Source: a virus. From it: DNA of 64,000 nt. Below are positions 4,141-63,675 of the stretch, piece after piece (within the stretch, counting starts at the first letter, position 1; each line of letters starts with the position of its first letter). The notes below the pieces were generated by a model that did no database searches, was not told the DNA's origin, and saw only the letters and a list, made by a program, of their open reading frames with translations. Made by a program: the position numbers and the translations under genes. Location of the stretch: IMG/VR virus record IMGVR_UViG_3300045988_156211; one strand, 5' to 3'.

Positions 4141-6437
4141 AGATCCTTATCATGTTTATGGTATATTGATTCATACTTGTCCATAAGTTTTGGAAATTTA
4201 TCTGGATATTCCTTAATACTTATAGATTTATACTTCTTATGCTCTTGAAGGTATTCCTCTACTGAGAAATCTGGTTGAAGCATTTTGTTATAATCATATC
4301 CCGGGATAAATGGTAATTCTTCAGCCATAGTCCTACCAACTGAATAATCCATATCCATTTCAACATCATCAATCTGAAAACCGAAGTATGGCTCTGTTAA
4401 AGGGTTTTTAAATATTTGCCACATCTTATTTACAGTCCATACATTTATATCTTTAGGATCAGCATTATAATATACAGCATCATGAACTGTAGCAACTTCT
4501 TTCATATAGGGTAGTTTTCCTTGTCTCATATCCCAATATATAAGGATACTACCAAATAAGGTCATATCAGATGCTGGAGATTGACATGGGAAGTTTAGTC
4601 CCAATCTTACTGCATAAGCTTCCTCATCACTATTTTCAGAATATATTTGAGGTAATCTACGTCTTCTACCAAATAAAGACATAAGATATCCATGCTTCCT
4701 TAAGTATATTTCCTGTTTCTCTTTAAACTCTCTTAATTTTGGATGTTCATTAAAGTATTCATCCATTTCTTTTTGAGCTTCTTGTTTAGAAACTATAATA
4801 CCAGCTTTTGGATCTGACAACTTAACTGCTAATAGATTTGCTCCGATACCATATATCAATCCAAAAGCAGTTTGCTTAGCATTCTTTCTGCGTATTTTCC
4901 AAAGAGTATGTTCAGGATGTTGTTCATCATCATATATTGCAAAAGCTTCATCATATGGTACTTTATATTTTTTAGCAGCAATAGCTAAGTGTGGATCTTG
5001 TCCTTCTGCAAATGCTCTTAGATAAGTTTCATCTCCAGATAGATGAGCCATCATTCTTAATTCTGCCTGAGAGAAATCGGATTCGAAGTATAATTTACCT
5101 GGTTCGGCTACTAATTGCTTCTTTATATTTGGGTCTACCGTAGTTTTAGGTATTTGCTGCATATTAGGTTCAGCAGATGATAATCTACCAGATGTAGTAC
5201 CATGAATAAGATATCGGCCATGTAATCTGTGATCATCCTGATATTTTTCACTCCATCCCAAGATATAGGTTTTATACATTTTTTCCAAACCTCTTAATTC
5301 AAGTAGGTTATCCAGGAATATTGCTTTGGGTGAATCAGGGTTTTTTATCTTTAACCTTAAGTTTGATAGAGTTTCCTCATCCGTACTGGGTTTACCTTTA
5401 TCCGTATATTTCAAAACTGGGAATTTAAATCCTTCATCACTATACATAAGTTGAGGTAAATCATTATTACTGTTTAGATTTACTCCTCTTGTCAGATCTA
5501 ATTCCTTTTTAGAATTATATATCCCAGCTTTAATATTGGATATTTTAGTCAATCTATTAGCTATTTTCTTTTCATTAGAACTGCCATCTGATTCTTCTAG
5601 TTCTTCAATTTCTTTTTGGATAGATTCTATATAGTTACTTACTTTAGTATCTACTAGATATTTACTAAATCTTTTAACCTTTGGCAAATTATAAATATTC
5701 TCATAGGCTTTCTCTATTTTAGGTTGATAATCCTGTAAGAGTTTTTTATTAAATTCAGTATCTATATACAAACCATTCCTTTCAACACATTGAATAACCC
5801 TTGAAGCAGGCATTATAAGATTCCTGAATAAATTGTAAAATCCCAGTTTAATCAGCTTATTCTCTAAGAATATACATAACCTAAAAGTATAATCACTATC
5901 CTGACATCCATATTTACATAGGGGTTCTAATTCCTTTTTATCCCAGGGTATCTTATCGAAATTATCCTGTTTCTCATAATCCCCATATTCAGGTAAATAT
6001 CTCCTAACCATACTTTTAAGATCGTTAGGCTTCTCTTCATTAAGAACATATTTAGCAAGCATACCATCTATAACAGTACCTCTATACCAAATATTATATC
6101 TATCGAATATCTGAAAGTCAAATTTTAAGTTCCAACCCAATTTAACTACTCTGGGATTTTCTATAATATGCTTACCAAAAATTAGCAAAGCTTTTCTCCA
6201 ATTATATCCTTTATCAGTGTACTGTTTTGTCTGAAAATGATCTAAAGGGATAGAACAACCCATACCTGGTTGAAAACATACCGATAGTATAGTTGGTTTA
6301 AAGGTATCATTATATATGGGTTCACTGTTAGTTTCAAAGTCTACAGATGAATATCCAGTAGACTTACAAGCTCTAATTAATTTGTAAAGCTCTTTATAGT
6401 TTCTTATTATGTGATATTTAGTTTCCATATATAACAA
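4137..6437 (-). CDS. family A DNA polymerase with 3'-5' exonuclease domain
   Basis: Exo I is VDFETNS. Pol motifs are TSGRLSSAEPNMQQIP, DFSQAELRMMAHLSGD (motif A), RRKNAKQTAFGLIYGIG (motif B) and VHDAV (motif C). Confidence 0.95.
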   Translation of the reverse strand: MLYMETKYHIIRNYKELYKLIRACKSTGYSSVDFETNSEPIYNDTFKPTILSVCFQPGMGCSIPLDHFQTKQYTDKGYNWRKALLIFGKHIIENPRVVKLGWNLKFDFQIFDRYNIWYRGTVIDGMLAKYVLNEEKPNDLKSMVRRYLPEYGDYEKQDNFDKIPWDKKELEPLCKYGCQDSDYTFRLCIFLENKLIKLGFYNLFRNLIMPASRVIQCVERNGLYIDTEFNKKLLQDYQPKIEKAYENIYNLPKVKRFSKYLVDTKVSNYIESIQKEIEELEESDGSSNEKKIANRLTKISNIKAGIYNSKKELDLTRGVNLNSNNDLPQLMYSDEGFKFPVLKYTDKGKPSTDEETLSNLRLKIKNPDSPKAIFLDNLLELRGLEKMYKTYILGWSEKYQDDHRLHGRYLIHGTTSGRLSSAEPNMQQIPKTTVDPNIKKQLVAEPGKLYFESDFSQAELRMMAHLSGDETYLRAFAEGQDPHLAIAAKKYKVPYDEAFAIYDDEQHPEHTLWKIRRKNAKQTAFGLIYGIGANLLAVKLSDPKAGIIVSKQEAQKEMDEYFNEHPKLREFKEKQEIYLRKHGYLMSLFGRRRRLPQIYSENSDEEAYAVRLGLNFPCQSPASDMTLFGSILIYWDMRQGKLPYMKEVATVHDAVYYNADPKDINVWTVNKMWQIFKNPLTEPYFGFQIDDVEMDMDYSVGRTMAEELPFIPGYDYNKMLQPDFSVEEYLQEHKKYKSISIKEYPDKFPKLMDKYESIYHKHDKDL

Positions 6438-6471: not shown

Positions 6472-7248
6472 TTAATATTTATCTACTAATTCTGACAGAT
6501 CTCTACTGAGCTCATTCCAGTCTTTTTTGTAAGCATGTAGAGAATCTATATTATGGTATAAGTAACCAGGTGTAATACCTATTTCCTTAGCCACATAATT
6601 CTTTAATCTCCAAGCCAAGTATACATCGTTACCGAAGTGTTGGATATAATCTGAAGACCTTTGATTATAGATCATATGAAGTACCTTTCCTCCGCCTATG
6701 TTCTCTCTTACTAAGAAGTGATAATACATTGAACAGGGTATTCTTCTAGAACCGTCAATATAATCCTTATCTATAGTTGTATCCCATACACTTAATATTG
6801 CTTTACGAGTATCTGGATCATCCTTAAGTAATTGTATCACATTGTCAATGTAATTATTCCAACCACCCTTATAAGAGGCTAAATCATTAAACCTCTCATT
6901 ATAGGTATAATCAAATACTCCGTGATCATTACCTCTATCTACCAAGAATTGTTCCCAAAGATCTCTTCTTTCTTTCCAAGCTTCTCCTGGGTTTATAAAG
7001 TTTCTATTTATTCTCTCATTAAATTCGGCTTTAGCCCAATCATATGAATGAGAGAATGTGAACAACCAAACTGGATCACCCATATCTACCAAACAATAAG
7101 ACTGAGCTATTATCTCCTTGGTTATATAATCCTCATTACCCTCAATGTCTTTATTCTGGTAATGTTTAGGTTTTACAGTAATACCGTAACTCCTTAATTC
7201 TCGGCCCATTTCGGACATGAGCTCGAATGAATCTCCAAATATTCTCAT
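6472..7248 (-). CDS. divergent thymidylate synthase (ThyA)-fold pyrimidine nucleotide C5-transferase (synthase, hydroxymethylase or methylase)
   Basis: IDNVIQLLKDDPDTRKAILSVWD, the catalytic-Cys motif IPCSMYYHFLV, YNQRSSDYIQHFGNDVYLAW and IDSLHAY align with ThyA motifs (DPxSRR, PCH, QRSxD..PFN, GDxHxY). The N-terminal third is atypical. Confidence 0.75.
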   Translation of the reverse strand: MRIFGDSFELMSEMGRELRSYGITVKPKHYQNKDIEGNEDYITKEIIAQSYCLVDMGDPVWLFTFSHSYDWAKAEFNERINRNFINPGEAWKERRDLWEQFLVDRGNDHGVFDYTYNERFNDLASYKGGWNNYIDNVIQLLKDDPDTRKAILSVWDTTIDKDYIDGSRRIPCSMYYHFLVRENIGGGKVLHMIYNQRSSDYIQHFGNDVYLAWRLKNYVAKEIGITPGYLYHNIDSLHAYKKDWNELSRDLSELVDKY

Positions 7249-7288
7249 AGTTTTATTGATTTTTTATTGTTTATAAATAGCAAATCAC

Positions 7289-8227
7289 CTATTCTTTACT
7301 GTTAGAGTTATTCTTAGCTTCTCTTTTCAGCTTAGCCAGATATTTTTTCTTATAGGCTTTTCTCTGTGAGAAGCTTATAATATTCTCGGGATAATCAATA
7401 TCGTCTTCCTCTATTACTAAATCCTTAGCATACAAAGGTTTGTAAGTATATAGGTCCGGTCTAAGTACTTTAAAACTTCTAAAGTATACCTTGAATGAAG
7501 AGAAGTCCTTTTCATCTCCCTTCTTAAACTTATCAAATACTGACTTAACTTTAGTTACCCAGGGATTATCTATACCCTTTAATACCTTCTTAAGTGATTT
7601 ATGAGTATGGTACATTATAAGAGTTTCGGTATTACCATACATCTGAGTAGCAAATACATTTAGCTGTACGGACTGATTAGGCCCATAAATATATTCTGCC
7701 ATTCTCTGAACCAATAAGAAATCAAATATAAGCCTCTTAGTAATTTCTGAAGCTCTTAATACCATAGTTATTACCGGTATATCTTCCTGAAATCTTTTAG
7801 AGAATGTAGCCGATATTAGGCATTGCTTACCATTATCATGCTTATTATTGAAGATGTAACTTACATTATAATTCTGATTATACTTTACTTTTAAGAATCT
7901 TAACTTACTTCTAAGTAAATCTAGCTTGTTAAAATCAATATAATTATTCAGCAAGCTTGACCATTTAGAACTTGTATAGTTAAAACATCTACCATAATCA
8001 AATTCGGGATCAACCCAGGCTTTCCTTATTCGGATAAATACGTTATATACTACGGCTAATCCACTGTTTGCTATAGCTCCTTTACTAAATAATGATGGGT
8101 TTAACTGTAAGAAGTACTCATTGAGTTTTTCCCATGCCTCTTGAGAGGTAGAGAACTCCAGAGTATGTATATTCTCTGAACAATCCATGTTCTCTAACCC
8201 CTCTAATTGTTTATTCCATCCAGACAT
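7289..8227 (-). CDS. hypothetical protein, possibly a second very divergent ThyA-fold paralogue
   Basis: GKQCLISATF ... VLRASEITKRLIFDFLLVQRMAEYIYG ... VFATQMYG loosely mirrors the Cys, QRSxD and terminal-Tyr motif order of ThyA. This is weak by-eye similarity only. Confidence 0.3.
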   Translation of the reverse strand: MSGWNKQLEGLENMDCSENIHTLEFSTSQEAWEKLNEYFLQLNPSLFSKGAIANSGLAVVYNVFIRIRKAWVDPEFDYGRCFNYTSSKWSSLLNNYIDFNKLDLLRSKLRFLKVKYNQNYNVSYIFNNKHDNGKQCLISATFSKRFQEDIPVITMVLRASEITKRLIFDFLLVQRMAEYIYGPNQSVQLNVFATQMYGNTETLIMYHTHKSLKKVLKGIDNPWVTKVKSVFDKFKKGDEKDFSSFKVYFRSFKVLRPDLYTYKPLYAKDLVIEEDDIDYPENIISFSQRKAYKKKYLAKLKREAKNNSNSKE

Positions 8228-8228
8228 A

Positions 8229-9077
8229 TTAATAATTCGTTTTTAATCTCCAAATGTTTAACTTATACTTCTTAAAGTAAAGATTGGTTATACTATAAGG
8301 ATCAAATCCATACATCTTAAGAAAACCCATAAATAGATAGAAAGCCTCTACGATATAACTCTGAACCTCGTTTTCTTTGGTTAATACCTGAGTTTTCTTC
8401 CATGGTCTACACTTAAGATCATTTCTAGCCATATTAAGGCAATATGTTATACTAAATATGGCTAATTTCTCCGTTCGGTGATAACCATAATTCATACGAC
8501 TAAATCCCGGGATATATTCACTATCGGAAGATGTTTGGTAATCTACTATATCATATGGAGCCGTAGTTACAGCATAATCATCCATCTTACTTATAAGTAA
8601 ATCACGTCCAACAGCCATTACCTGGTTTAAGTTAGTACATACCTTAGTTACATGCTTACCTGACCATCTTAGTAAATCATCACTACCAATGTTCAAATAA
8701 AGAAGGATAGTCATCATGAATCCCAAAGCATCAGCCTGTTCTTCACAAGCATTTTGCAATGTATCCTTTATATACTGGGTGCTTTCATCATCCAACCTAT
8801 CCATGTTCCATCCGATAGAATCATTGTTCAATAACTGATATACAATATCGGTAGATTCAAATCCCTCATTTAGTTCCTCTATAACCCTACTTATAAAATC
8901 CTTTATAACCTCCTGATTACGAGGTATATTGATATTCATTGGGTAATCAGGTAATTGTTCTATACCACTATCTTTATAAGCTTTAAGTTGTTCTTTAGCT
9001 ATATCGAATATAGTTTCTAAAAAATTTAGATTATAAGGATCTATCGGTAATTTTTCTTTAATATTGCGTATATCCAT
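8229..9077 (-). CDS. all-alpha NTP pyrophosphohydrolase-like protein (MazG / dimeric dUTPase / dCTPase-like)
   Basis: Acidic helix motifs RVIEELNEGFES and ACEEQADALGFMMTILLYL, then CRPWKK, resemble the EExxE...ExxD metal-binding helices of all-alpha NTP-PPases. Neighbours are nucleotide-metabolism genes. Confidence 0.45.
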   Translation of the reverse strand: MDIRNIKEKLPIDPYNLNFLETIFDIAKEQLKAYKDSGIEQLPDYPMNINIPRNQEVIKDFISRVIEELNEGFESTDIVYQLLNNDSIGWNMDRLDDESTQYIKDTLQNACEEQADALGFMMTILLYLNIGSDDLLRWSGKHVTKVCTNLNQVMAVGRDLLISKMDDYAVTTAPYDIVDYQTSSDSEYIPGFSRMNYGYHRTEKLAIFSITYCLNMARNDLKCRPWKKTQVLTKENEVQSYIVEAFYLFMGFLKMYGFDPYSITNLYFKKYKLNIWRLKTNY

Positions 9078-9082
9078 AGCGA

Positions 9083-9862
9083 TTAAAGTTTTTCAGTTGA
9101 AACTCCAGACCCCATACCGTTTGTTCCTCTATCACTCTCCTTTGATAGTCTATCATAAGATGTATCGGTAGTTTCCAATAATATACTTCTAATATAGGGT
9201 ACATGTAAGAATTGTATAAGTCCCTTATTCTTAGCATAAGTAGCCATATCCAAAGTTATGGGCTTATCACTGATATTAGCTAATCCAATATGTATCTCCC
9301 CCGTATAGTCAGCATCTACTACTTCTGCAGTAAATATAAGACCATTATCGGTAGCCATACCAGATTTATTCTTAGCCAATAGACAAGTACCTTTGTCTAC
9401 TATCCATACTCTTATACCTGAAGGAATAGAAACTCTTCCATTTGGTCTGATAACTATGTTATCCACTTCTCCAAGTAGATTAGTATTGATCAGACAATGA
9501 CGGTATTTAATTATATCAGAAGGTTTTAGTACTGGCATAAAGAAATCTATACCAGCATCGTTCATACAGGCTCTTCTTGGACATTTTACTTCCCTTAATC
9601 TGGTGAAGTAAATCATATCTGATTCTCTAACTGGCTTTAAATCATCATGGAGATGAATTACATTATCATTTTTTCTTTTGCTAACCATGTCTTCATTTTT
9701 ATTATTTGTTTCTAAACTACCATCTCCAACAAAATCAAGTCTACTAATAAATTCCTCTTTTCTCTTAGCCCGATTCTCTCGATTTTCTTTAGAGATAGCC
9801 TCAATATCTTTATAAAAATTAATATACTTATATTTCAGACGTTTAACTCTTCTTGTTACCAT
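9083..9862 (-). CDS. dut: trimeric dUTPase with a roughly 90-aa basic N-terminal extension
   Basis: All five dUTPase motifs are present: NDAGIDFF, AKNKSGMA, VVDADYTGEIHIG, GLIQFL and DRGTNGMGSG. The start is uncertain (20-nt overlap with the upstream ORF; internal Met candidates exist). Confidence 0.85.
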   Translation of the reverse strand: MVTRRVKRLKYKYINFYKDIEAISKENRENRAKRKEEFISRLDFVGDGSLETNNKNEDMVSKRKNDNVIHLHDDLKPVRESDMIYFTRLREVKCPRRACMNDAGIDFFMPVLKPSDIIKYRHCLINTNLLGEVDNIVIRPNGRVSIPSGIRVWIVDKGTCLLAKNKSGMATDNGLIFTAEVVDADYTGEIHIGLANISDKPITLDMATYAKNKGLIQFLHVPYIRSILLETTDTSYDRLSKESDRGTNGMGSGVSTEKL

Positions 9863-11403: not shown

Positions 11404-11435
11404 CAAATATACTACATTTATTTTATATATGCAAA
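11404..11435 (-). promoter_or_regulatory. Bacteroidota-type promoter TTTG-N20-TATATTTG
   Basis: The minus strand reads TTTGCATATATAAAATAAATGTAGTATATTTGCA. The -7 box is at 11404-11411 and the -33 box at 11432-11435. It lies 39 nt upstream of the ATG at 11365. Confidence 0.7.
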
Positions 11436-16579: not shown

Positions 16580-16648
16580 CAATCCTCAGCTATTTTTATA
16601 AAAATATGTATATTTATTTGCATATATAAAATAAATGTAATATATTTG
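16580..16648 (+). promoter_or_regulatory. Bacteroidota-type promoter with conserved 26-bp upstream box
   Basis: CAATCCTCAGCTATTTTTATAAAAAT, then TTTG (16617-16620), N20 and TATATTTG (16641-16648). The ATG is at 16676. It is near-identical to 55377-55445. Confidence 0.7.
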
Positions 16649-55376: not shown

Positions 55377-55445
55377 CAATCCTCAGCTATTTTTATAAAA
55401 ATGTCTGTATTTATTTGCATATATAAAATATTTATATTAATTTTG
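55377..55445 (+). promoter_or_regulatory. Bacteroidota-type promoter with conserved 26-bp upstream box
   Basis: It has the same 26-bp box, then TTTG (55414-55417), N20 and TAATTTTG (55438-55445). The ATG is at 55474. Confidence 0.7.
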
Positions 55446-56373: not shown

Positions 56374-56832
56374 ATGCAAGTATTTATACCTTATGCACAA
56401 CCAATAGATGTTGCACAAACTCTATGGAATGATCAAAAACGTTATAATAAACAGATAATAGAATGTATTCAGATACTAAGAGCTATGGATGGACATACAG
56501 CTTGGTCTAATCATCCTGTAGTTAAGATGTATAAAAATAACCGTGACTGGTTAGTATGTTATGCTAAATGCCTTAGTAGTTATCGTCTATTTAAGGAAAC
56601 TGGAGATAGGAAGTATATAGGTGAAGCCAATGCTTGGAATATTAATGCTGATAGCTGTAGACCTGACTTTATAAATAAGGATGAGATAATTATTCAACAT
56701 AGAAAGAGACTTTATACAAAAGCTCCAGAATTATATCCTCAGTTTAGTAAGTATGGTACTAGTGATATAAATTATTACTTCGTAGATGGTAAAATCTTAA
56801 AATACAGAAATGGTAAACTCATAGAAGAGTGA
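56374..56832 (+). CDS. pyrimidine-dimer DNA glycosylase-family-like protein (weak)
   Basis: MQVFIPY..IDVAQTLWNDQKRYNKQIIECIQILRAMDGHTAWSNHPVVKMY resembles the LD..RL..Q..E...IL.....W.nHP...M pattern of that family. By-eye only. Confidence 0.35.
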   Translation: MQVFIPYAQPIDVAQTLWNDQKRYNKQIIECIQILRAMDGHTAWSNHPVVKMYKNNRDWLVCYAKCLSSYRLFKETGDRKYIGEANAWNINADSCRPDFINKDEIIIQHRKRLYTKAPELYPQFSKYGTSDINYYFVDGKILKYRNGKLIEE

Positions 56833-59796: not shown

Positions 59797-60002
59797 TTGT
59801 TAGTTTTGTGTTTTTATTATTTTTTAGTTTTTGTGTAGTTTTCGATTATGGGGTATTGGGATTTCTCGGTACCCCTTTATTGTGTGTGTTGTGTTTTTGT
59901 GTGGTATATTTTTCGAGGAACCCCTTTAATACGTACGGGAAATGGCCAGGTAGTTTCAGGGGAGCACGGTTGCAGTGATATTAAAAAAGTAAAAATAAAA
60001 GT

Positions 60003-60315: not shown

Positions 60316-60702
60316 TTATTTAGTTTTGTTTGTAGTACGTTTTGGTTTTGCTTGCTCCTGATTATTTGATTTTTGCAAATAATCTTTGCAAATCTGCAAA
60401 CAATTTGCATATGTTTCACGTTTTTCGTTTCTTGTATTTTCGCTGCAAACGCTTGCGAGTGAATAATCGTTTATTGCATAAACTTGCTGATAGAAATCTA
60501 TAAACTGATTTATAGATTTTTCAGTTTTTGACAAAACAACGTCGTTTGCAAATGCAAATGCAATTTTTCTGATTTTGCGTCTTGCTTTTTTCAAGTCATT
60601 TTCATTTAAACCTGTAAATAACTCTTTTTTGTAGATTTCACGATTTGAATTTACGTTTACGTTTACATTCAGTTTTGAAAAAATTTCATTTAAAGTTGCC
60701 AT
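60316..60702 (-). CDS. hypothetical early-cassette protein
   Basis: 128 aa, with its own TAtcTTTG promoter and a leader conserved with the 63.4-kb cassette. Confidence 0.6.
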   Translation of the reverse strand: MATLNEIFSKLNVNVNVNSNREIYKKELFTGLNENDLKKARRKIRKIAFAFANDVVLSKTEKSINQFIDFYQQVYAINDYSLASVCSENTRNEKRETYANCLQICKDYLQKSNNQEQAKPKRTTNKTK

Positions 60703-60750
60703 AATCTTAAAGTTTTAATTGGTTATACATTTTGTTTAAATTTCACGTTG

Positions 60751-60782
60751 CAAAGATAGTGAGTTTTTTCTAAACTTGCAAG
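60751..60782 (-). promoter_or_regulatory. weaker promoter cTTG-N20-TATCTTTG
   Basis: The minus strand reads CTTGCAAGTTTAGAAAAAACTCACTATCTTTGCA, upstream of the ATG at 60702. Confidence 0.5.
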
Positions 60783-60832
60783 CATTTTTCAAGAAAAATT
60801 TTAATTATTATATGATTTTTGATTTAAATCAA

Positions 60833-60850
60833 AAAATCGTGCCGGATTTT
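60833..60850. promoter_or_regulatory. palindromic-arm site AAAATC-N6-GATTTT, copy 1
   Basis: AAAATCGTGCCGGATTTT. Confidence 0.5.
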
Positions 60851-61049
60851 AAATTTTAACAAAAATAATTTTGATATTTGAAAATTTATTTTATTTGCGT
60901 GTACATTATATAAATAAATTAATAGTCCTTAAATGTTCATGCAATGTTTTTAAATGTTCGTAACCTAAAATCAATCTATTTTTTAAATTTAACCCAAAAT
61001 TCTAAAAATTTTTTAAATTTAAGATTTTTGTGAAAATTTTTTAAAAATA

Positions 61050-61067
61050 AAAATCATGCCGGATTTT
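61050..61067. promoter_or_regulatory. palindromic-arm site AAAATC-N6-GATTTT, copy 2
   Basis: AAAATCATGCCGGATTTT, 217 bp from copy 1. The two copies differ at one base. Confidence 0.5.
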
Positions 61068-61148
61068 TTAATATTATTGTTTGTGTATTTAAAATTTTCA
61101 TATATAATTTAAAATTTGTGGCTATGAGGATCACTGAGCCCATAATAA

Positions 61149-61290
61149 CTATAGGGGCCTTGTCTCCATAGGGGCTTTATCTCTATAGGGATTATATAAG
61201 CCTATGTGTATATATGATATAAGGCCTTATATCTAATCTTAATATACCCGATAAGAGATATAGGGGCTTTAATACTTTATCTCTATATGG
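61149..61290. repeat. array of GGGGCYTT motifs (often followed by TTTATCTCTA)
   Basis: GGGGCCTT at 61154, GGGGCTTT at 61171, AGGCCTT at 61222 and GGGGCTTT at 61263. TTTATCTCTATA occurs at 61177 and 61276. Confidence 0.8.
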
Positions 61291-61307
61291 TTATTAAGGT
61301 TTAAGGT

Positions 61308-61340
61308 ATGTAACAAAGTTAGCGAATGTAACAAAGTTAG
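61308..61340. repeat. tandem 15-mer ATGTAACAAAGTTAG x2 (18-bp period)
   Basis: Copies at 61308-61322 and 61326-61340, separated by CGA. Confidence 0.85.
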
Positions 61341-61346
61341 GCTCAC

Positions 61347-61381
61347 AAAAAAAGATCCCGAGTATCACTACTGAGGATCTT
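61347..61381 (-). terminator. intrinsic terminator of the 63.4-61.6 kb cassette
   Basis: AAGATCC(61352-61358)...GGATCTT(61375-61381) with an inner AGTA/TACT stem. The A7 run at 61347-61353 gives a T-run on the minus strand. Confidence 0.6.
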
Positions 61382-61559
61382 CGACAATTATGATCTTAGA
61401 ATAATGTGAAAAATTTAACGAAAATAAGAAGAGCTTAAGATATATCACATAGGTTAAGCTCTAAAATGTATAACAATTTTATAAACTCTGTAATCGCAAC
61501 TAATATGTTTGTATATAATCGGTGTTCATATTAATATAGTTTATCCTAGAGAAAAGTAA

Positions 61560-61582
61560 GGGAAAGCCTAGTAGACTTTCCC
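61560..61582 (-). terminator. stem-loop overlapping the stop codon of 61568..62011
   Basis: GGGAAAG-cctagtaga-CTTTCCC, followed on the minus strand by TTACTTTTCTC. A further hairpin AGAGCTTAA...TTAAGCTCT lies at 61430-61462. Confidence 0.4.
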
Positions 61583-62011
61583 ACGTGGTACGTTAATTGA
61601 TTCTCTATCGAATAGTTCTGTAAGCGTTATTTTGATTATAGAATCGGGTTTAAAGTTGAGAGCAATTTCCTTGGTTATTAATGGGTACTGTTCTACGGTT
61701 TCCTCTAGGAATACTTCCCAGATTTCCTTTATCTTATCTCTGTGTTGAGCTTGGATTCTCTTATTGCCTTTGACAGGTTCTGGGTATTCTAAAGAGACCG
61801 TCAATTCTAAGAACTTATAGTTATACCAGTTCTTTTCTTGAATATCCTCTATGATAATGGAATTGATCTCTTTACTGTATTGGTAAGGATGAGATTCATT
61901 ACCAAAGGTTTCGGATATCTTCTTCTCTATTAGTTTTAAGAGATATCGGGTCTCTATGGTTAGAGAATCAAGTTCATCCCTTTCCTTGATGATATTTGTG
62001 AATTTGAACAT
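61568..62011 (-). CDS. hypothetical early-cassette protein
   Basis: 147 aa, followed by serial hairpins. It shows weak similarity to the C-terminal half of 62024..62890. Confidence 0.6.
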   Translation of the reverse strand: MFKFTNIIKERDELDSLTIETRYLLKLIEKKISETFGNESHPYQYSKEINSIIIEDIQEKNWYNYKFLELTVSLEYPEPVKGNKRIQAQHRDKIKEIWEVFLEETVEQYPLITKEIALNFKPDSIIKITLTELFDRESINVPRGKVY

Positions 62012-62023
62012 AGCAGTATGGGT

Positions 62024-62890
62024 TTAGAAGTTATTTTTATCGAATGTATCTGTGAATACTATGAGAGTATAGAATTGTTTATTCGAATCGGTAAGATGGG
62101 TTATCTCATCTATGTGATTATTCTCGGATTCCATCTCATCCTCTTCGAAAAGCTTTTCGATAGAATCGATTAGGGATTTGCCATGATCCTTATCCTTAGT
62201 GGGATAACTTAGAGTGAAGGTTACCATAAGTTTATCATCGGTTTCCTTAACCTTGGTAATGGTTAGCTTATCGCAATATGAAGTAATGGGATGATCTGCA
62301 TAAGTACAGTCATCTGTGATATTCATATCGATCTCCTTAAGCATCATCCTCGCCTTCATTGATAGGTCTAGGTTTAAATCATGTGGATCATATCTATTGA
62401 TATATTTCTCTGTAGGTATAGGCCAATACTTCGTAGAGATTACTATGTTATATACTGCATGAACGTAATGTGCCATCTTTTCGCAATATATCTTAGTGCA
62501 GGCTACGTTGGTATGTGGAAGTTTTGGGCAAACATCCATAGCATTTAGTATATGGGATGTTTGTTGGGCTAGCTTAACCCTAATGGGATAGGATAAATCC
62601 GGGCTATCCAGCTTATCGTAAATCATAATGGATATAGTAAATGTATGGGTATCCACTGGGATTTTGGTATCTGATAGTAAAACTGGATATAGCTCTGGAT
62701 TCAATGTTACCATTGAAGGTTCTGTATCGAAGGCATCGTAGGAATATTTGGTTAGTTCGATATCCAATACCTCGTCCTCTACTTTTAGAGATAGCATCTT
62801 CTTTCTGAAGTCCTTGATGTAATCTAAGGGTGTTTCGTATAGGTTATCGATTACCTTATCGATCGAATTAAGGAAGTTTCTAGTGTCCAT
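62024..62890 (-). CDS. hypothetical early-cassette protein
   Basis: 288-aa ORF. Confidence 0.6.
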   Translation of the reverse strand: MDTRNFLNSIDKVIDNLYETPLDYIKDFRKKMLSLKVEDEVLDIELTKYSYDAFDTEPSMVTLNPELYPVLLSDTKIPVDTHTFTISIMIYDKLDSPDLSYPIRVKLAQQTSHILNAMDVCPKLPHTNVACTKIYCEKMAHYVHAVYNIVISTKYWPIPTEKYINRYDPHDLNLDLSMKARMMLKEIDMNITDDCTYADHPITSYCDKLTITKVKETDDKLMVTFTLSYPTKDKDHGKSLIDSIEKLFEEDEMESENNHIDEITHLTDSNKQFYTLIVFTDTFDKNNF

Positions 62891-62990
62891 ATCTGTTGTT
62901 AATTAAAGATTGATAATACGATTAATACTAAGTATACTATGATAAACGTAAGGATTACGAAGAGTACATCCTTTAAGAGTGATTCCTTCT

Positions 62991-63428
62991 TCATTTGAGA
63001 TTTGTTGTTAAGGTTATTGTTATTTGTGTGTTATGTATATTCCCGGTCCTGTGTAATCTGATAAGATTATTATCCTTATCGCAGAATACGATGTGATATT
63101 TATCGAATTCCCGGGATTGATAGGTAGTGGTTTCGAGGAAGTTAACTAGGATATCGCATACTAGGTTCCAAATGAGATTATTATTGAATCTAGCCTGGGA
63201 TGTAGCTTCTTCGTTTCCCTTAAGATTTCGATTTGATAGGGATATTGATAATACTTCGGTATGGAATGGAAGTATAACCATTGGGATTAAATCCAAGTAA
63301 TTCTCTTGATGTTTGAAAGAGTATGAGTTATCTTTTTTGATTTCGATACATGCCTCTTCTACCTTTGAAAGGATTGCATTAAGATCGAGATCCTTGAAGG
63401 TGATCGGTTTGATGGTTGATTTTTTCAT
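62991..63428 (-). CDS. hypothetical early-cassette protein
   Basis: 145 aa, the first gene after the promoter at 63476-63507. Confidence 0.6.
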   Translation of the reverse strand: MKKSTIKPITFKDLDLNAILSKVEEACIEIKKDNSYSFKHQENYLDLIPMVILPFHTEVLSISLSNRNLKGNEEATSQARFNNNLIWNLVCDILVNFLETTTYQSREFDKYHIVFCDKDNNLIRLHRTGNIHNTQITITLTTNLK

Positions 63429-63475
63429 TTTTACTACATTTTAATTGTTATACATATTATTTAATTTTCATGCTG

Positions 63476-63507
63476 CAAAATTAATGCAAATAATTTATAT
63501 ATGCAAA
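63476..63507 (-). promoter_or_regulatory. Bacteroidota-type promoter TTTG-N20-TAATTTTG
   Basis: The minus strand reads TTTGCATATATAAATTATTTGCATTAATTTTGCA, upstream of the ATG at 63428. Confidence 0.65.
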
Positions 63508-63675
63508 TATTTTTGCAACAAATTTATAATTTCAGCTCGTTTGAAGATAGTTTAAGATAGTAGATGAGTAAGATTTGCTCTTTTAGCATATCCCGGGATA
63601 ATTCTAGAGGAGTATTTTTAATTTTAGATAAGATTAGTAAGTTAATAAGTGGGATATTTTTCTAGATATGAGTAG

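Follow-up and report, generated by a model that had tools for sequence, protein, structure and literature searches.

A repeated non-coding module among the early genes of a gut phage: a candidate protein-binding platform with an origin-like arrangement

Origins of the iteron type, as in the plasmids RK2, pSC101 and P1 and in the ori of phage lambda, combine direct repeats that bind the initiator with an AT-rich element, often with the initiator gene beside them, and in plasmid origins the iterons adjoin the unwinding element (PMC4980987). Phage T4 offers a related case in oriE, where 12-nt direct repeats are clustered; this origin requires an early promoter and is situated near a point at which the transcribed strand changes (PMC3016281). 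In SPP1 the G38P protein binds two separate sites, oriL and oriR (PMC3485210). T4-like phages furthermore carry the elements called PeSLs, which are composites of terminator and promoter found at points of indels and replacements (PMC2839356, PMC4122927). Here we compare with these systems a non-coding module that occurs twice in the early region of the IMG/VR virus record IMGVR_UViG_3300045988_156211, a 64-kb stretch of DNA from a tailed phage with 32% GC (the whole stretch is called the window below). The module is best explained as a cis-acting DNA element, neither a gene nor a structured RNA, and we tentatively favour reading it as an origin-like platform for protein binding, arranged as iterons are with an unwinding element. 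The kind of element is familiar; this variant, a polar box and an irregular array of RGCC words linked with an unannotated protein family across several clades of abundant gut phages, is undescribed.

The early region is a chain of small minus-strand cassettes with one host-type promoter each, and only two of its intergenic regions carry the module. Module 1 lies between the cassette running from 63428 to 61568 and the cassette running from 60702 to 60058, and unless noted otherwise all features described below are on the minus strand. It opens with an intrinsic terminator, T3 (61347-61382), in which the stem GAAGATCC../..GGGATC is followed by T7. T3 has the properties of a Rho-independent terminator, namely a stable GC-containing hairpin followed by U7 downstream of an operon, and its fold of -18.3 kcal/mol (z = -3.6) was matched by 0 of 200 shuffles; 8 lineages share it, differing only by one G/A substitution within the stem and in how long the T-run is. 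Two copies of a box, CTAACTTTGTTAC, come next (61328-61340 and 61310-61322). The box is an inverted repeat, TAAC-N3-GTTA, with polar flanks and is found only in the modules and only on the sense strand; a CG before the second copy gives CGCTAAC at 61318-61324. A preliminary description, prepared from the letters of the window, had reported a terminator, two 15-mers and G-rich words in this place, and all of these are present on the minus strand. Its 15-mer, which on the plus strand reads ATGTAACAAAGTTAG twice with a period of 18, is the polar inverted repeat CTAAC-N3-GTTAC, whose arms are fixed and whose centre is variable. The AGCGAAT word it had singled out is on the other strand here, and CGCTAAC contains part of it.

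The boxes are followed by the array of GC-rich words. Word a (AGAGATAAAG + GTATTAAAGCCCCTAT, 61260-61284) has an RGCCCC core that is invariant in 9 lineages, and the words d1 (GAGATAAAGCCCCTAT, 61168-61183) and d2 (GAGACAAGGCCCCTAT, 61151-61166) stand in tandem at 17 nt. Three of the four G-rich motifs listed earlier are thus recovered, at 61151-61167, 61168-61184 and 61260-61276, but the third on that list is no GGGGCYTT word; it is a perfect 12-bp palindrome, ATAAGGCCTTAT (61219-61230, strandless), composed of two AAGGC half-words. A putative short imperfect hairpin, TGGGCT..AGCCA (61119-61142), may close the array, and in a sister clade described below a hairpin ACAAGG..CCTTGT is found at the same place.

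For analysis only, a complete circular sequence of 82,467 bp was rebuilt from the window and its contig ena:ERZ27262007:k109_95502, the overlaps of which are without mismatch. AARGCCCC occurs six times in this genome, 6/6 in the modules and on the gene strand, and 0 times on the other strand; counted in the 64 kb as GGGGCYTT, the six copies compare with 1.9 expected and all fall into two stretches of about 130-180 nt on one strand. The shape of the word is 16 nt, GANNYAARGCCCCWAT; four copies match it exactly and three nearly, every one of them on the minus strand and inside one of the two modules. The word density of this genome is 12.6 per kb inside and 0.13 per kb outside the modules. Restricted to the modules in the full genome are likewise ATTCGCTA (twice), AGAGATAAAG (three times), TTTTTTGTGA (twice), TAACTTTGTTAC (twice) and CTAAC-N3-GTTAC. 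The preliminary description had set a comparison with chance as a test of its motifs in advance, and over the full genome their distribution is very far from random. It had given the spacing of the words as 15-45 bp. The spacing is irregular: from core to core it is 42, 50 and 17 nt in module 1 (17-50 nt) and 32, 25, 21, 27 and 61 nt in module 2 (21-61 nt). By eye, these spacings do not fall on multiples of 10.5, and a helically phased arrangement was rejected; a G-quadruplex was likewise rejected by eye, the loops between the G-tracts being at least 13 nt.

Module 2 (63676-64000), the paralogue of module 1, lies between a cassette beyond the window and the cassette 63428-61568. It begins with the T-tail of a terminator (63990-64000) whose stem lies just past the end of the window and is visible in the relatives L001 and L025 (L numbers denote fetched loci), and continues with CGCTATC (63957-63963) and the words e (63842-63857), f (63810-63825), g (63764-63779; decayed here, intact in L001/L018/L136) and i (63676-63691, with AGAGATAAAG at 63691-63700). 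The recurrence at 63676-64000 claimed earlier is therefore real, in that TTTTTTGTGA and ATTCGCTA follow a terminator, but the claim of the same order holds only loosely. The shared CACAAAAAAA(A)G is the reverse complement of the T-tail of the terminator, and CACAAAAAAAG is that tail. A global alignment of the two modules scored 123.5, compared with 94 +/- 8 for shuffles, and their loose colinearity is what would be expected of old paralogues. As a side observation, the C-rich start of module 2 (CCAAATCCTCATCCTCAATCCCCAAC) has a rough complement in G-rich sequence that directly precedes the terminator of this module (GGGGGTGGGGCG.., TTGGGGATAGGATAAAGGGGGG; L001 2530-2590, window 63910-63990).

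Downstream of module 1 lies a small gene, here called gene X (60316-60702), which encodes a basic helical protein of 128 aa. The layout of terminator, box, array of GC words, AT-rich tract, promoter and gene X recurs in this order in at least three clades whose X proteins are only 35-45% identical. The sister clade comprises about 80 viral contigs of 85-87 kb with an X homologue that is 45% identical, and here the terminator is followed by TTACGCTAACTTAGTAAGCCC, an array with the words ATAGGCTTAC, TATGGCCTTAT, AAGGGCCTTAAT and TAATGGCCTTATC, a short hairpin, an AT-rich tract containing TTTTCACAAAAAT and TTTTCTTGAAAATGTTTG, and the promoter GTATCTTTGCAATGTGA. CGCTAAC occurs about twice per locus, and the density of AAGGC in 12 sister-clade loci is 6.7 per kb inside and 0.9 per kb outside the modules. 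Judged by eye, the palindrome ATAAGGCCTTAT is probably homologous to the most conserved block of this clade (GGCCTTATCAATATACAGGTATATAA). Since a second box, CGCTAACTATGTTACATAATACC, followed by at least nine AAGGC words lies 1.2-2.3 kb further upstream, the arrangement with two modules is conserved as well. In L201, a member of the sister clade, one unit of the array (TATAGGCTATCCTAATCTCTATAGGCTTACCGTAGTCCC) is duplicated in tandem at about 1298-1440, which shows how arrays grow.

In the third clade (L217/L218) the X protein is 44% identical, the boxes are CTAACTTAGTTAC, CTAACTCAGTTAC and CTAACCCCGTTAC, the words are ATATGGCCT and AAGCCCCTATAC, and a tract of 9% GC contains the core of an AT palindrome, TTGATTTAAATCAA; the word density in L217 is 6.0 per kb inside and 0.8 per kb outside the modules. 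A fourth clade (L219/L220) has an upstream region of 1 kb with at least seven ATGGCC words and no clear box. Across the clades CTAAC-N3-GTTAC is found only in module regions and only on the sense strand, with the centres TTT, TAT, TTA, TCA and CCC, and the words take the form WWRGCCYY, with the variants AARGCCCC, ATGGCCTT and AAGGCAAT. Fixed arms, a free centre and polarity argue for a protein site and not for a promoter or an RNA helix, and the pattern of the box is what a site for a dimeric protein looks like, as far as sequence can tell. Scans of viral contigs with P0075 and P0083 gave no further clades. An exact-pattern scan of viral contigs with AGAGATAAAGCCCCTAT returned only the L001 contig and three unrelated chance matches, and a metagenome scan with the box returned two contigs, both already known. 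Among 106 loci around DUF5675 homologues in viral and GTDB genomes, clusters of A[AG]GCCCC were absent outside the L001 contig except in L121, where a group of three in DNA of 53% GC was put down to chance.

The close relatives are contigs of 80-83 kb from human-gut metagenomes, and both modules are kept in nine distinct lineages. Conservation of the arrays in related phages, on which the preliminary description had staked its proposal, is found both at this range and, for the layout, in the further clades. Compared with the most divergent lineage (L001/L136), the stretch with terminator and boxes is 96-100% identical and the array 82-92%, while the gene and spacer immediately upstream of T3 are only 40-70% identical, which looks like a recombination boundary at T3 from the sequences compared. 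L001 carries, in place of the 147-aa gene, an allele of 124 aa with about 58% nucleotide identity, the break falling exactly at T3; the 288-aa gene (62024-62890) is cut to 151 aa in L001 and absent in L019. In so mosaic a region, conservation among close relatives alone cannot prove constraint or be taken simply for purifying selection, and phylogenetic footprinting inside the close clade was rejected for the same mosaicism and for too little divergence. The RGCCCC cores show no variation in module 1. Module 2 has lost word e in L006 and word f in L009, and it has word g only in L001/L018/L136; such turnover of words in an array that persists is expected for redundant binding sites.

It was also considered whether the module could be something other than a set of sites in DNA. 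It contains no open reading frame of at least 26 aa, the longest being a 25-aa GTG frame at 61269-61346. ARAGORN found no tRNA or tmRNA in the module, Rfam gave only chance-level matches, and folding compared with shuffles gave z = -0.75 and -1.06 on the two strands, which together speak against a structured or non-coding RNA gene. Both 15-mers carry TAACTTTG, which matches the -7 box TAnnTTTG, and a Bacteroidota sigma-A promoter was considered at this place and rejected: the nearest TTTG is 24 or 10 nt away where 19-21 is needed, a strict promoter scan found only the true early promoters and none at the 15-mers, and the TTTG is lost in other clades. An explanation by GGCC as a restriction site was discarded too, as GGCC shows no avoidance (43 observed, 47.6 expected). 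The plus-strand words GGGGCTTTA/GGGGCCTTA, which are antisense to all neighbouring genes, presumably recall a MotA box only loosely. By eye, no -7/-10 element stands at the right distance from them. In T4 middle promoters the MotA box, (a/t)3TGCTT(t/c)A, is at -30 with a -10 element 11-13 bp downstream (PMC4122927).

Directly after module 1 follows an AT-rich tract (60713-61112, strandless) with 17.8% GC over 400 nt, and at window sizes of 200, 300 and 400 nt nothing else in the 82.5-kb genome is as rich in AT. We propose it as a candidate DNA-unwinding element. The equivalent tract is the window of minimum GC of the fetched locus in L139 (15.5%) and in L217 (9%). The tract after module 1 contains two AAAATCCGGCAYGATTTT hairpins, TTTTCACAAAAAT and an 18-bp perfect AT palindrome, TTTTGATTTAAATCAAAA (60817-60834), about 35 nt upstream of the promoter P_C. 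The hairpin word AAAATCCGGCAYGATTTT (61050-61067 and 60833-60850) is found nowhere else in the genome, one copy being inside a gap of about 140 bp in L009, and the core TTGATTTAAATCAA of the palindrome recurs in the third clade, again on the upstream side of gene X (L217 4797, L218 2873). P_C itself (60751-60782) is a predicted promoter of the Bacteroidota type, CTTG-N20-TATCTTTG, which matches the consensus and has the form GTATCTTTGCAATGTGA in the sister clade.

It appears from this arrangement as if the module brings together the parts of an origin. The strong terminator closes an early cassette and is followed on the minus strand by one or two (CG)CTAAC-N3-GTTAC boxes and by three to six GC-rich words (GANNYAARGCCCCWAT) with the palindrome ATAAGGCCTTAT; after the array of module 1 come the most easily melted DNA of the genome, a host-type promoter and gene X. 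In the mechanism we have in mind, a sequence-specific protein, either from the early region of the phage or from the host, would bind the box as a dimer, and the same protein would bind the words as an array. The resulting nucleoprotein complex beside the AT-rich tract could then act like an iteron-type origin, with initiator sites, an unwinding element, early transcription and a small early gene, and module 2 may serve as a second site for the same protein. The phage encodes its own DnaB-type helicase, primase and PolA, and it therefore needs an origin and a site for helicase loading. The suggestion of clustered protein-binding sites made in the preliminary description is partly supported and fits best: it agrees with the one-strand 16-nt words, their confinement to two modules, the layout across clades, the polar inverted repeat and the failure of the RNA alternatives. 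Regular spacing, a link to a sigma-like factor and partition-like sites are not supported; no par genes are among the Pfam families listed for genes in the fetched loci.

With the iteron origins the module shares an array of same-strand repeats of about 16 bp, of which GANNYAARGCCCCWAT supplies at least three direct copies of a defined word, an adjoining tract that is the AT-richest of the genome, and a small conserved gene downstream. The palindromic word ATAAGGCCTTAT beside direct copies is a further likeness, since inverted half-iterons serve autoregulation in iteron origins. It differs from them in its irregular spacing, in a short core (RGCCCC) with loose flanks, in that no Rep-like winged-helix initiator was recognised among the neighbouring proteins, in that DnaA boxes are not enriched, and in having two modules 2.5 kb apart, of which only module 1 adjoins an AT-rich unwinding element. 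The likeness to T4 oriE lies in a T4-like phage with direct repeats beside small early genes, a host-type early promoter and a switch of the transcribed strand, which here is at 59978/60058, about 1.1 kb from module 1; the role of the T4 repeats is putative, as it is here. The T4 repeats, however, measure 12 nt and stand at even distances, they show no sequence similarity to those of the module, and the T4 description has neither box nor terminator. As in SPP1, there are two candidate binding regions with repeats per genome and a DnaB-type helicase of the phage's own, and homology of oriL and oriR to the modules is not expected. In SPP1 oriL and oriR are far apart and one of them is inside the initiator gene.

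In the wide family to which gene X belongs, a long intergenic region of the module type always precedes the gene. A profile search collected 138 clusters at 50% identity, and the family has no Pfam or PHROG annotation. Two AlphaFold models (pLDDT 72 and 85) gave no significant fold match in the PDB; the model with pLDDT 85 is a plain helical bundle and shows no match to winged-helix Rep and no recognisable DNA-binding fold. BFVD holds one match, an uncharacterised Myoviridae protein with 38% identity. The proteins of the cassettes, compared with Pfam, PHROGs and PDB sequences, gave nothing except a compositional match to a designed propeller and the sub-threshold AF_0924. It is conceivable, though improbable, that the gene X family is a new origin-binding or origin-organising protein that together with the box, the RGCC array and the AT tract makes up an undescribed replicon module in several clades of 80-87 kb phages of gut Bacteroidota.

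Several observations weigh against an origin-like role. No binder has been found, and gene X is without a known fold or a Pfam or PHROG match. Module 2 has no comparably AT-rich tract, and about 140 bp of the tract after module 1 are missing in L009, so that this part must be dispensable. The irregular spacing of the words is unlike the even, helically phased spacing of classical iterons, and DnaA boxes are no more frequent than chance predicts. Mosaicism or recombination accounts for part of the high identity that the module shows to L001, and the 2/42 variable columns in the word cores do not differ significantly from the 58/425 elsewhere in the module. Finally, nearly all genes are on one strand, for which reason the GC skew cannot locate an origin and is uninformative on its place.

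The anatomy could instead be that of a transcription-control region, in which the box is an operator and the array a regulator platform that times, represses or insulates the cassettes of P_C and P_B, with no role in replication; the regulator would possibly be the gene X product acting on its own promoter. This is a close rival, which we nevertheless regard as on the unlikely side. Each module does lie between a terminator and the next host-type promoter, operators typically are inverted repeats whose arms are fixed and whose centre is free, and the adjacency of gene X is kept across clades as it would be for autoregulation. In its favour, too, other palindromes lie nearer the promoters: P_B has TATCCCGGGATAT about 80 nt ahead of it, and P_C has TTTTGATTTAAATCAAAA at about 35 nt. 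But the boxes and words are 170-590 bp upstream of the promoters, with the boxes at the far end, and the 170-400 bp between the sites and the next early promoters are a long way for ordinary bacterial activators or repressors. Five other early-promoter cassettes do without a module, gene X is without a recognisable DNA-binding fold, and this reading leaves unexplained why, in three clades, the DNA that separates array and promoter is so extremely AT-rich. An action at the level of RNA, either as a C-rich, G-poor site for loading of Rho (rut) that backs up the terminator or as a small non-coding RNA started at TAACTTTG, would account for the presence of TAACTTTG in both 15-mers and for the composition of module 2, where the 80 nt after the terminator (63990-63911) contain 25 C/6 G and the best overlapping 80-nt window, with 25 C/4 G, ranks second in the genome for C excess; the 489-nt region around this terminator also folds somewhat better than shuffles (z = -2.35). 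Module 1, however, has 14 C/10 G after its terminator and no C bias, there is no Rfam match, neither strand of the module folds significantly, a -33 element at 19-21 nt is lacking, and in other clades TAnnTTTG is lost (TAACTATG, TAACTTAG, TAACTCAG) while the arms of the palindrome are kept. A generic rut site, moreover, needs no conserved 16-nt word, and we consider an RNA-level element very improbable.

Two further explanations assign no binding function to the words. If the modules were recombination linkers of the PeSL type, the non-coding blocks would persist as homology for the shuffling of early cassettes between co-infecting relatives. The genome does have T4-like content (gp32, RecA/UvsX, SbcCD, Cpn10, EndoV and a T4-type TerL) and seven near-identical promoter cassettes of about 110 bp, and like a PeSL the module is a conserved non-coding terminator/promoter sequence between small early genes, with replacement or deletion of genes between close relatives at its border: the allele swap relative to L001, with identity rising to 96-100% exactly at T3, and the 288-aa gene that is deleted in L019 and halved in L001. 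Yet PeSLs are compact and repeated many times, whereas here the stem-loop is about 590 bp (T3 to P_C) or 490 bp (module 2 to P_B) from the promoter and the vocabulary of the module occurs in only 2 places, the promoter cassette alone having 7 copies. PeSLs are also without the word array and the box; homology needs no particular words, and neither the one-strand 16-nt motif nor the box with its fixed arms is explained. As the same layout is found with different sequence in clades too diverged to recombine, this account seems quite improbable to us. A neutral relic, that is, an old intergenic duplication with local tandem duplications that is still decaying, would fit the loose colinearity of the modules, the tandem 17-mer d1/d2, the fresh tandem duplication in L201 and the loss of single copies in some lineages. 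But the modules have diverged to near randomness and still have at least three copies each of a word found nowhere else in the 82 kb, and the layout is kept at 35-45% protein identity, where neutral DNA would be unrecognisable; given this layout across clades, a relic is barely credible. Of the readings set out here, we thus return with due caution to the origin-like platform for protein binding.

The module is a candidate origin or control region for replicons or reporters in phages of Prevotella or other Bacteroidota. It gives the gene X family a candidate function and marks the borders of cassettes where genes shuffle; were it merely a regulatory spacer, it would be a case of ordinary, lineage-specific phage gene regulation. 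The phages are common in metagenomes of the human gut: protein clusters of close relatives number seventy, and the wider family is encoded on hundreds of contigs of 80-87 kb. Their early regions consist wholly of unannotated genes.

The seven early-promoter cassettes share the core TTTGCATATATAAAATAAATGTATTAATTTTGCA and common upstream and leader sequences, and they resemble the promoter cassettes of T4-like PeSLs. Four are in the window, at 63474-63507 (-), about 11404-11435 (-), about 16617-16648 (+) and about 55414-55445 (+), and three are beyond it. The first of these is P_B, TTTG-N20-TAATTTTG (63474-63507, minus strand), which serves the cassette 63428-61568. The 82.5-kb genome has 3 copies of the 13-bp palindrome TATCCCGGGATAT, far more than chance predicts. 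One is the copy near P_B (63588-63600, at a distance of about 80 nt), one is inside the PolA gene (4296-4308), and one, beyond the window, is about 40 nt before a start codon (L027 about 18630); L136 has one mismatch in the copy near P_B. The three genes at 61568-63428 have a C-rich coding strand and a positive plus-strand GC skew, opposite to all other genes of the window, and by eye the 145-aa and 147-aa products and the C-terminal part of the 288-aa product of this cassette look like paralogues. The gene at 61568-62011 is followed by three hairpins, T1 (61560-61582), T2 (61430-61462) and T3 (61347-61382). T2, on the minus strand, has the stem AGAGCTTAA/TTAAGCTCT and a conserved 15-nt loop, CCTATGKGATATATC. 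Three to four pairs of its stem carry compensatory changes on both sides in L001 and L136 (AGGGTTGGA/TCTAACCC), with the loop unchanged.

The window encodes a tape-measure protein, Baseplate_J and tail fibres, and the virion is therefore myovirus-like. Its replication proteins include PolA, a DnaB-type helicase, a primase and an SNF2 helicase, to which the contig ena:ERZ27262007:k109_95502 adds gp32, RecA/UvsX, SbcCD, Cpn10 and thymidylate synthase; a T4 endonuclease V gene is at 56374-56832 of the window and TerL is of the T4 type. Start codons are without Shine-Dalgarno sequences and the promoters have the Bacteroidota form TTTG-N19-21-TAnnTTTG. The best DUF5675 matches are located in bins of metagenome-assembled genomes from Prevotella/Prevotellaceae, a weak hint that gives no more than a lead to a host. 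A near-identity search of a phage collection gave no match, and in the distant TerL relatives MT121964.1 and MT835790.1 the early region and the words of the module are absent. In MT835790.1 (L022) the TerL homologue is in two pieces (6952-7563 and 8539-9339) with about 1 kb between them, which suggests an intron, an intein or an inserted gene. GCGC and CGCG occur once each in the 64 kb, compared with 47.6 expected from base composition, and CpG is depleted in the full genome (observed/expected 0.47); the scarcity of these words and the CpG depletion could reflect restriction avoidance or mutational bias.

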